64,000 bases of DNA from an uncultured Gemmatimonadaceae bacterium (GTDB lineage: Bacteria; Gemmatimonadota; Gemmatimonadetes; Longimicrobiales; Gaopeijiaceae), in assembly GCA_963790115.1 (NCBI GenBank), contig CAWBNF010000001.1, forward strand, positions 3,446,436 to 3,510,435. The letters are read 5' to 3'. Of the stretch, positions 13,032-13,407 are shown piece after piece; position 1 is the first letter of the stretch, and the number at the start of each line of letters is the position of its first letter. A model generated the notes under the pieces. The model was not told where the DNA came from. It was given only the letters and a program-made list of their open reading frames with translations, and made no database searches. Both the position numbers and the translations under genes were made by a program.

Positions 13032-13407
13032 TGAAAGAAGGACGGCCGGGTCGTGGGGCCGAGTGGGCAAAAGGATCCGCGAAGTTCGAACCCACGTCGA
13101 TCTGCGAAGCAGATCGCAGCGTGGGTTCGACTCGAGCGCGCCGAACAGACCGTCACGAAGTGCCGAGCGGGTACACCGCCGAGAGGACGGAGCGGAGCGA
13201 CGTCCATCCCACTCCCTCCGTGAAAGAAGGACGGCCGGGTCGTGGGGCCGAGTGGGCAAAAGGATCCGCGAAGTTCGAACCCACGTGATCTGCGGAGCAG
13301 ATCGCAACGTGGGTTCGACTCGAGGCGCCGAACAGACCGTCACGAAGTGTCGAGCGGGTACACCGCCGAGAGGACGGAGCGGAGCGACGTCCATCCCACT
13401 CCCTCTG
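13032..13407 (+). repeat. Tandem array A: two units (13032-13220, 189 nt; 13221-13407, 187 nt), each ending in the 3' end of tRNA-Ser(GCT)
   Basis: The units are near-identical by eye. ATCCCACTCCCTCCG occurs at 13017-13031 (in the tRNA) and at 13206-13220; 13393-13405 carries the first 13 nt of it. Each unit also has a D-arm-like GGCCGAGTGG, a ~45-nt hairpin, and a copy of the T-arm 5' half GCGTGGGTTCGA (13119-13130). Confidence 0.9.

Follow-up and report, generated by a model that had tools for sequence, protein, structure and literature searches.

The stretch of DNA analysed here (hereafter, the window) comprises 64,000 nucleotides (nt) from an uncultured Gemmatimonadaceae bacterium, has a G+C content of ~69% and carries, at 11307-14402, an array of 17 tRNA genes, all on the + strand and none with an encoded CCA, in the order Met, Phe, Trp, Glu, Asp, Ala, Leu, Leu, Arg, Val, Ala, Thr, Gln, Ser, Ser, Pro, Ser. 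Three of its spacers, Ser(GCT)→Ser(GGA), Ser(GGA)→Pro(CGG) and Pro(CGG)→Ser(CGA), hold two repeat-like units each (A1 and A2, B1 and B2, C1 and C2, respectively; Table 1), which reproduce parts of the 3' end of the tRNA that precedes them (the "host" tRNA). These units belong to a conserved, previously undescribed family in Gemmatimonadota-type genomes; its members are derived from tRNA, are predicted to fold into three consecutive helices, and may act as RNA.

The operon holding the units is preceded by a terminator-like hairpin with a T-run at 11551-11574, between tRNA-Met and tRNA-Phe, so that tRNA-Met may constitute a transcription unit separate from the other 16 tRNAs. No terminator-like site was found on the + strand within the operon (11580-14402) itself. 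A G+C-rich hairpin is located 3' of tRNA-Ser(CGA); the orthologous hairpin in a related locus (L034) has a T-run and there represents a terminator after the array, while in another one (L038) a hairpin with a T-run follows the unit and not the tRNA.

A T-Arm Interrupted at a Fixed Position

An initial annotation of the window had described each unit as the T-arm of the host tRNA, split inside the T-loop by a GA-rich insert, and the coordinates and sequence strings on which it relied are correct for all six units. In A1, joining the two halves restores the 3' end of the host tRNA: GCGTGGGTTCGA (13119-13130) and ATCCCACTCCCTCCG (13206-13220) together give the last 27 nt of tRNA-Ser(GCT) (13005-13031). 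The 5' half is an exact copy of the host T-arm in A1, A2 and B1 and a degenerate one in B2. For the two remaining units the designation "host T-arm" is not demonstrated, since C1 and C2 share with their tRNA-Pro, apart from scattered matches, just the contiguous GGTTCGA that is universal in tRNAs, and with the tail CCGGG their putative stem strand GCAGG (CCCGG in the host) would form no more than three of five pairs.

The break falls after T-loop position 58 (TTCGA/ATCC) in 6/6 units, with an ambiguity of 1 nt in the B units that results from an extra A before ATCC. All six units can be aligned end to end, with the blocks GG..CGA..CGAG and ..TC.ATCC invariant, and the distance between TTCGA and ATCC amounts to 75 (A1), 74 (A2), 54 (B1), 43 (B2), 73 (C1) and 70 nt (C2). 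As had been remarked before, neither junction carries a full copy of an overlap; the left one (TTCGA/CTCGAG) and the right one (GAGCTC(A/C)/ATCC) have no overlap sequence in common. The resemblance to the T-arm far exceeds that expected by chance, GTGGGTTCGA occurring 11 times in the window versus 0.14 times expected (a count reached by 0 of 100 shuffles), and the junction is at the same position in every unit found in the relatives (24 units). Thus, the junction reflects neither chance nor slippage but is a fixed feature of the family.

Four of the 11 matches to GTGGGTTCGA are on the minus strand (13086-13095, 13275-13284, 13556-13565 and 13693-13702) and had gone unnoticed. They imply that each Ser-type unit contains an inverted copy, TTCGAACCCAC, ~25–30 nt upstream of the T-arm 5' half, with which it pairs.

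Predicted Fold and Covariation

The fold was derived from an alignment of 16 units using RNAalifold in combination with our own annotation, and consists of the three consecutive helices P2, P3 and P4. P2 has an invariant base, in which TCGAACCCAC pairs with GTGGGTTCGA, followed by a distal stem whose sequence differs between genomes while its pairing is kept; this distal stem takes the place of the variable arm of tRNA-Ser, immediately 5' of GTGGG. P3 abuts P2 from the nucleotide after TTCGA (CTC-GA-GCGG...CCGC-GA-GAG, including symmetric tandem G.A), its first pair being C-G in 18 units and G-C in six. P4 abuts P3 without a spacer, ends one nucleotide before ATCC, and is present in at least three sequence versions (GAGC/GCTC, CACG/CGTG and GGCGGCGC/GCGCCGCC). 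The three P4 sequences and the many P2-distal sequences are all paired, and their existence is independent of any model fitting.

According to this prediction, the "5' half" of the split T-arm is the 3' strand of P2, and the GA-rich insert corresponds to P3 plus P4. An expanded former T-loop would be in keeping with an interruption that comes directly after the fifth T-loop nucleotide. The helices start right after TTCGA and end 1 nt before ATCC; hence, the position of the junction is fixed because a conserved fold has been inherited by descent.

A covariance model (R1) built from the 16-unit alignment recovers 24 units at E<1e-8, all of them on the tRNA strand, with no matches elsewhere in the 64-kb window or in the chance scan hits. 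In the model-based alignment, 92.9% of the cells are paired, compared with 28–43% when the partner is slid by 1–3 columns, and double-sided changes occur in 18 of 31 pairs (87 cells), values reached by 0 of 500 shuffles; these figures are generous, because they were counted on a model-fitted alignment of related sequences, some of them near-duplicates.

P2 is an alternative to the T-stem that the split halves would form in a tRNA. Minimum-energy predictions for the Ser-type units folded give P2, and forcing the T-stem (GTGGG with CCCAC of the tail) costs 0.5–17.5 kcal/mol; the T-stem alternative is compatible in 93% of the cells, with GTGGG/CCCAC invariant. For the non-Ser hosts (the C units of the window, L035 and unit u2 of L031), the 5' strand of P2 is altered with its pairing to the invariant GGTTCGA kept, and pairing of the T-stem to the tail is poor or absent.

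Several further structures were considered and rejected. An extension of the T-stem by the base before GTGGG and the base after CCCAC is possible in 5/13 units, about as expected by chance, and an A-T to G-C switch at this pair between units A and B of L015 is a single case. For a pseudoknot linking the GA-rich region to the host-specific acceptor part of the tail, no type-specific complementarity was seen, units A and B of L015 having the same GA block with different tails. A bulge-helix-bulge or closing helix around the insert is incompatible with an invariant 5' end and a 3' end that switches between GCTC and CGTG along with the 5' strand of P4. An interdigitated double T-loop would consist of two UUCGA placed at the P2 base; of these, the 5' copy lacks conservation, varying instead as a Watson-Crick partner in the Pro units of the window, in L035 and in L031 u2.

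Distribution of the Family

Relatives of the units were sought via sequence patterns and protein anchors. A one-genome-per-species scan for TTCGASYCGAG-N30-60-GAGCTCMATCC gave 23 matches, about the number estimated by chance, of which two (L005 and L015, both from Gemmatimonadota metagenome-assembled genomes) lie in the same 17-tRNA array with the same order and have single units after Ser(GCT) and Ser(GGA). Scanning metagenomes for TTCGAAC-N20-50-GGGTTCGACTCGAG added the arrays L024, L029, L034 and L037, the tRNA-Ser(TGA) loci L031 and L038, and a unit at tRNA-Arg(CCG) in L035. Among the anchors, purH added L065, L067 and L068; homologues of the MgtC-like protein were mostly on short contigs, with L046 as the sole added unit locus; and the M3 peptidase gene was not adjacent to the array in the relatives fetched.

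Taken together, the family spans about ten other contigs and mostly occupies orthologous positions of the same 17-tRNA array, the order of which is shared exactly by L005, L024 and L037 and can be followed in part in L015 and L046. Units at Ser(GCT), Ser(GGA) and Pro are present in the arrays of L005, L015, L024, L029, L034, L037 and L046, those associated with Ser(TGA) in L031, L038, L067 and L068, and that associated with Arg(CCG) in L035. Every unit is on the tRNA strand and just 3' of tRNA-Ser(GCT/GGA/TGA), tRNA-Pro(CGG) or tRNA-Arg(CCG). The upstream MgtC-like flank is common to the window, L024 and L037, and the protein encoded beside the array in the latter two is only 45–55% identical to that of the window, indicating that these genomes are well diverged. 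Across divergent genomes, the leaders and the spacers that follow the units cannot be aligned, while the three-helix plan persists and GGTTCGA, CGAG and CGAGAG form blocks with little or no variation in any unit type.

An Rfam scan of 10500-15500 (E<=10) yielded no tRNA, YrlA, tmRNA or mascRNA match inside any unit; the only matches touching units (sX4, mir-727 and Plastid-psbl-rps4) score 15–29 bits versus gathering thresholds of 68–104. No description of such elements was found in the literature searched.

The purH-linked loci L065-L069 share a conserved cluster of selA, a HAD phosphatase gene, an Fe-S assembly gene, a gene for a metallo-beta-lactamase fold, purN and purH, with the tRNA-Ser(TGA) locus and its units located just beyond purH in varying arrangements.

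Table 1. Host tRNAs, units and unit parts within the tRNA operon (positions in the window; bit scores refer to the covariance model)
Feature	Position	Strand	Remarks
tRNA operon holding the units	11580-14402	+	tRNA-Phe through tRNA-Ser(CGA)
tRNA-Ser(GCT)	12946-13031	+	host of A1 and A2; without encoded CCA
Unit A1	13032-13220	+	119.9 bits
A1 leader	13032-13084	+	tRNA-Ser 5'-part remnants GGACGG..CCGAGTGGG
A1 P2 base	13086-13096 with 13120-13130		
A1 P2 distal stem-loop	13098-13118		
A1 P3	13131-13185		
A1 P4	13186-13205		
A1 tail	13206-13220		
Unit A2	13221-13407	+	tandem copy of A1, ~97% identical; 124.6 bits
A2 TTCGA	end 13318		
A2 P3 + P4	13319-13392		
A2 tail	13393-13407		1 mismatch
tRNA-Ser(GGA)	13441-13524	+	host of B1 and B2
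Unit B1	13525-13666	+	87.9 bits
B1 palindrome	13550-13565		GTGGGTTCGAACCCAC
B1 P2-closing strand	13588-13597		GTGGGTTCGA
B1 P3 + P4	13598-13651		
B1 tail	13652-13666		
Unit B2	13667-13784	+	older, degenerate tandem copy; 54.5 bits
B2 T-arm 5' half	13719-13726		GTGGGCGA; 2-nt deletion
B2 insert	13727-13769		
B2 tail	13770-13784		2 mismatches
tRNA-Pro(CGG)	13807-13880	+	host of C1 and C2
Unit C1	13881-14032	+	55.2 bits
C1 closing helix	13918-13927 with 14018-14027		GCGCGCGGAT with tail ATCCGGGCGC
C1 short P2	13930-13934 with 13938-13942		GAACC with GGTTC
C1 P3 + P4	13945-14017		
C1 tail	14018-14032		
Unit C2	14033-14179	+	tandem copy of C1, period 147, ~97% matches; 43.5 bits
C2 TTCGA	end 14094		
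C2 P3 + P4	14095-14164		
C2 tail	14165-14179		

Probable Origin from tRNA and Pro-Type Units

The leaders of the Ser units retain pieces of the 5' part of tRNA-Ser (GGACGG..CCGAGTGG in the window, GGAC-CGAGTGG in L005). The Pro-type units of L005, L015, L024 and L034 are short hairpins, in which an acceptor/T-stem 5' remnant located upstream pairs with the tail. An acceptor-type helix involving the 3' tail is found in the Pro units of five genomes and includes one compensated pair, T-A in L034 but C-G in the window, L015 and L005; in L005 it thereby departs from that genome's own tRNA-Pro, which has T6-A67. The Pro-type units of the relatives are thus simple acceptor/T-stem minihelix mimics. 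Given both the leader remnants and the Pro hairpins, the units look like remodelled tRNA copies and not like bare 3' fragments.

In the Pro units of the window, the P2-P3-P4 module is contained in the hairpin loop, and the same hairpin is present without the module in L005, L015 and L024; from this module gain, recombination at the junction point is possible. An extra partial tRNA-Pro tail, ATCCGGGCGCC, is situated between the Pro unit and tRNA-Ser(CGA) in L005 (5400-5470, minus strand) and also in L024, L029 and L037; it forms an 8-bp hairpin with the downstream GCCCGGAT and is absent from the window.

Tail Tracking and Copy-Number Change

The tails follow the sequence of the host tRNA closely. 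The 15-nt Ser tails occur six times on the + strand within the array of the window, the 15-nt tails of which have 0–2 mismatches to the host tRNA; 11 units have host-matching tails with 0 mismatches; and the tails of L068 carry the lineage-specific acceptor variant CCTCTCC of their host. In tandem sets, the last (outermost) copy has the most decayed tail.

Units are found at the same positions in all arrays seen, with varying copy number. Tandem copies are present in the window (three pairs, two of them ~97% identical and one older), L031, L034 and L068, and L065 is without unit u1 though its purH is 98% identical to that of L031. The P2-distal and P4 types assort independently of position, the CACG version occurring after Ser(GGA) in L005 and L029 and after Ser(GCT) in L024. 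Units A and B of L015 are ~93% identical, with near-identity except for their tails, and B2, unit 2 of L034, u2 of L031 and the unit of L035 are visibly decaying copies. These tail, copy-number and type-assortment patterns fit frequent unequal crossing-over together with gene conversion. Substrates of this unequal recombination would be found both in the direct repeats, formed by tRNA end and tail, and in the conserved blocks, and the tandem pairs of the window would have arisen from such an event between a tRNA 3' end and the identical tail; the tail may be kept matched to the tRNA by the same process or by selection. Of the recombination history that the initial annotation had proposed, this part stands: the tails act as recombination substrates, as seen from the tandem duplicates and the missing unit. 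The crossover by a tyrosine integrase that it had envisaged is not supported, considering that the segments of the window measure 118–189 nt and are without genes, that they are at orthologous positions in divergent genomes, that the two junctions have no overlap in common, and that the insert consists of two helices with compensatory substitutions.

Proposed Function and Mechanism

The family itself, the upkeep of its helices by compensatory change, the constant junction, the tail that follows the host tRNA and the changing number of units are shown by the comparisons above. We give an even chance to the full reading, in which these structured, tRNA-derived spacer elements are co-transcribed within a tRNA operon and probably act as RNA. 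Each unit would represent an old tRNA 3' half, expanded by two helices at the one point that leaves T-loop positions 54-58 intact, with the T-arm 5' half sequestered by its inverted copy. The Ser-type plan reads variable leader, P2 (a long hairpin), P3, P4, one nucleotide, and ATCC together with the 3' strands of T-stem and acceptor and the host discriminator. The units would be transcribed together with the tRNAs and released by tRNA 3' and 5' processing enzymes, where cleavage of the RNase Z type is expected because no CCA is encoded. Their role as RNA would most plausibly be that of a processing or stability module, or that of a mimic or decoy of the 3' half of the host tRNA.

Action as RNA is suggested by three lines of evidence. 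Firstly, the units are inside a transcription unit that has no internal terminator-like site, and the terminator of L038 is placed after the unit. Secondly, a T follows the tRNA discriminator and most tails, and the purine-rich motif T(W)GAAG(R)AGG (spotted by inspection) recurs after the discriminators of the host tRNAs (13032-13043, 13525-13535 and 13881-13890) and several tails, as well as in related loci (TGAAAGAAGG, TAGAAGGGAAG, TAGAAGGTTG, TTGAAGAAGG and TTGGAAGG); this trailer may constitute a 3'-processing context. Thirdly, the Pro units are of the minihelix kind accepted by processing enzymes; acceptor/T-stem minihelices are substrates of RNase P, RNase Z and the CCA-adding enzyme.

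The following points weigh against this interpretation. Transcription of the units and their release from the operon are deduced from sequence. The covariation counts are generous, as stated above, and the T-stem provides no covariation, as neither of its strands ever varies. In the Ser units, an acceptor-like duplex of leader and tail is no better than that obtained with shuffled leaders, and the acceptor part of the tail has no detectable partner that would account for retention of the tail at the RNA level. The helices show no excess of G.U (7 cells versus 15 with A.C), and the loops are mostly C(GAA)G, C(GCA)G or C(GGA)G triloops; C(GNA)G triloops are best known as exceptionally stable DNA mini-hairpins. 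Since G.U is not favoured, C(GNA)G loops prevail and the Ser tail acceptor lacks a partner, a role at the DNA level and a neutral-relic model with concerted evolution retain some weight.

Alternative Explanations

A more specific proposal, that the units are a new class of tRNA-derived three-helix RNAs which are freed by tRNA processing and decoy or mimic their own host tRNA, appears unlikely to us in this full form, in which two tandem-G.A helices would have expanded the T-loop after position 58 and an inverted copy would mask the T-arm 5' half. Such a decoy could act on RNase P or Z, on the CCA-adding enzyme or on enzymes that modify the T-arm, as well as on toxins directed against tRNA or on integrases for which the tRNA 3' end is the attB.

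It is more doubtful still that integrative elements targeting tRNA 3' ends gave rise to the units, either as their remnants or as miniature, non-autonomous derivatives, with the tail as attR and the helices as former attP, comparable to cis-mobilisable elements with tandem accretion. The signature that delimits tRNA-borne islands is present (PMC4383910), in that a direct repeat of the last 15–16 nt follows an intact tRNA, and attB cores in the T-loop are known (PMC1762012). The most degenerate tail being the outermost one of each tandem set, the assortment of P2-distal and P4 types independently of position, and the module gained by the Pro units of the window and lacking in relatives would likewise suit this explanation, as would two related loci, which point to a use of these tRNAs by mobile elements. 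L065 (4800-4900, minus strand) has a real, displaced piece of tRNA-Ser(TGA) that begins within the anticodon loop (CTTGAAAACCGG...CCCCTCCG); unrelated DNA with a foreign open reading frame (ORF) lies before it, and only unit u2 follows. It looks like the attR left by an element that integrated at the anticodon loop. In L038, similarity to L031 stops precisely where the tail ends, after which (2761-3098) a hairpin with a T-run, a stretch of lower G+C content and a small ribbon-helix-helix-like ORF are found, and this sequence may be a mobile element using the unit tail as its attachment site. However, the segments themselves are 118–209 nt long and without any gene, an integrase-bearing copy was not seen, and a scan of viral contigs gave 18 16-mer matches, none of which fits the model. 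The units keep the same positions in all arrays examined, in divergent genomes; compensatory change, as seen in their stems, would not be shown by att scars; no overlap is common to the left and right junctions; and a T-loop crossover between Ser isoacceptors would provide a tRNA with a foreign acceptor strand. Nothing found marks the units as integrase scars.

We consider it improbable in a yet higher degree that the units are non-functional relics, i.e., decaying tandem pseudo-tRNAs whose hairpins and tails are kept alike by gene conversion, template switching and unequal crossing-over. The tRNA-Ser 5' remnants in the leaders, the Pro units, which look like internally deleted tRNA-Pro copies, the ~93% identity of the two L015 units and the several decaying copies (B2, L034 unit 2, L031 u2 and L035) agree with it; what it does not account for is a three-helix plan maintained at ~50% identity of the flanking protein, with leaders and spacers beyond alignment, three P4 and many P2-distal sequences that are all paired, and the (near-)invariance of GGTTCGA, CGAG and CGAGAG across the unit types.

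Least probable is a DNA-level role as folded single-stranded or cruciform sites for recombination, priming or replication, similar to integron attC or CTX-type folded att sites, with P2 presenting a duplex copy of a tRNA T-arm half-site: conserved inverted ends with a free centre in P2, as in attC, invariance of the P2 base on both strands, the indifference to G.U over A.C and the dominance of GCGAAGC-type C(GNA)G loops (five of the 33 GCGAAGC copies of the window are inside the 1.15 kb of units (13104-14122), all on the + strand, as C(GAA)G loops of P2, P3 and P4) favour it, and it is opposed by the lack of an associated recombinase or relaxase in any locus (none among the genes directly flanking the array of the window or those called beside the purH-linked units; a complete ORF scan of all loci was not made), by the co-orientation of all units with, and their location inside, a transcription unit, by two independent G.U pairs at the same P2 position (L046 and L068), and by tandem G.A helices and GNRA loops (GTGA in L031), which are typical of RNA.

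Flanking Genes and an Additional Spacer

The genes directly flanking the array in the window encode kinase/TPR, MgtC, peptidase M3 or nucleotidyltransferase domains or are without a Pfam match. Directly after the array, a large Ser/Thr protein kinase with TPR repeats is encoded on the minus strand (14443-17754), a downstream flank not seen in any of the related loci compared. Between tRNA-Leu(GAG) and tRNA-Arg(ACG), the spacer (12305-12476) measures 172 nt in the window and 174 nt in L046, compared with 10–36 nt in L005, L015 and L024, contains the hairpins caccgccgctgaaagcggtgg and ggcgtacttcatgtacgcc, and may be a further inserted element or an internal promoter region.

Significance and Comparison with Known Systems

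The fold of the units is well supported, and the rule by which their tails track the host tRNA is unusual. If functional as RNAs, they would add a new family to the few bacterial tRNA mimics, and the spacers of tRNA operons in a poorly studied phylum would carry conserved structured modules matched to the host tRNA. For island-finding software they represent a pitfall, given that a "displaced tRNA 3' fragment", commonly taken for the boundary of an island, can be part of a conserved folded element; with their built-in direct repeats, they are also a natural system for copy-number change inside tRNA operons.

Like YrlA (RF02553), the tRNA-like domain of tmRNA, mascRNA and the "t-elements" of plant mitochondria, the units are built from tRNA-derived modules, namely T-arm sequence, acceptor 3' strand and discriminator. 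As mimics of an acceptor/T-stem minihelix, a type of structure recognised by RNase P and RNase Z, the Pro-type units would resemble these tRNA-like RNAs further. No Rfam model matches the units, however, and the Ser-type units have no detectable acceptor stem, their T-arm 5' half being predicted to be locked in P2. With 3'ETS-leuZ and the internal transcribed spacer (ITS) sponges of Escherichia coli they would share the origin as transcribed spacers of a polycistronic tRNA operon that are freed by tRNA processing; the E. coli external transcribed spacer (ETS) and ITS sponges are short and base-pair with small RNAs, while the units are 120–210 nt long, contain several helices and copy the 3' end of the host tRNA. 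The non-canonical tRNA introns in the T-loop of archaea (58/59 and 59/60) interrupt the same position. Unlike these, the units have a bacterial host, no complete exons (ARAGORN calls no tRNA) and no bulge-helix-bulge, and the ends of the insert pair inside P3 and P4 and not with each other.

Displaced tRNA 3' fragments at the borders of tRNA-borne islands, the attL/attR of tyrosine integrases (Islander, PMC4383910; T-loop attB of Ms6, PMC1762012), have in common with the units an intact tRNA with a direct repeat of its 3' end, the possibility of tandem arrays, and a repeat that starts inside the T-loop; they are distinguished from them by the short length of the units (118–209 nt), which are orthologous, carry no gene or integrase, are folded with compensatory changes and have no junction overlap. 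Finally, the interruption right after the fifth T-loop nucleotide, with UUCGA intact, recalls the T-loop pentanucleotide motif (PMC4810234), from which the units differ in that their UUCGA is predicted to be Watson-Crick paired in P2, with a partner strand that adapts in the Pro and Arg units and in u2.

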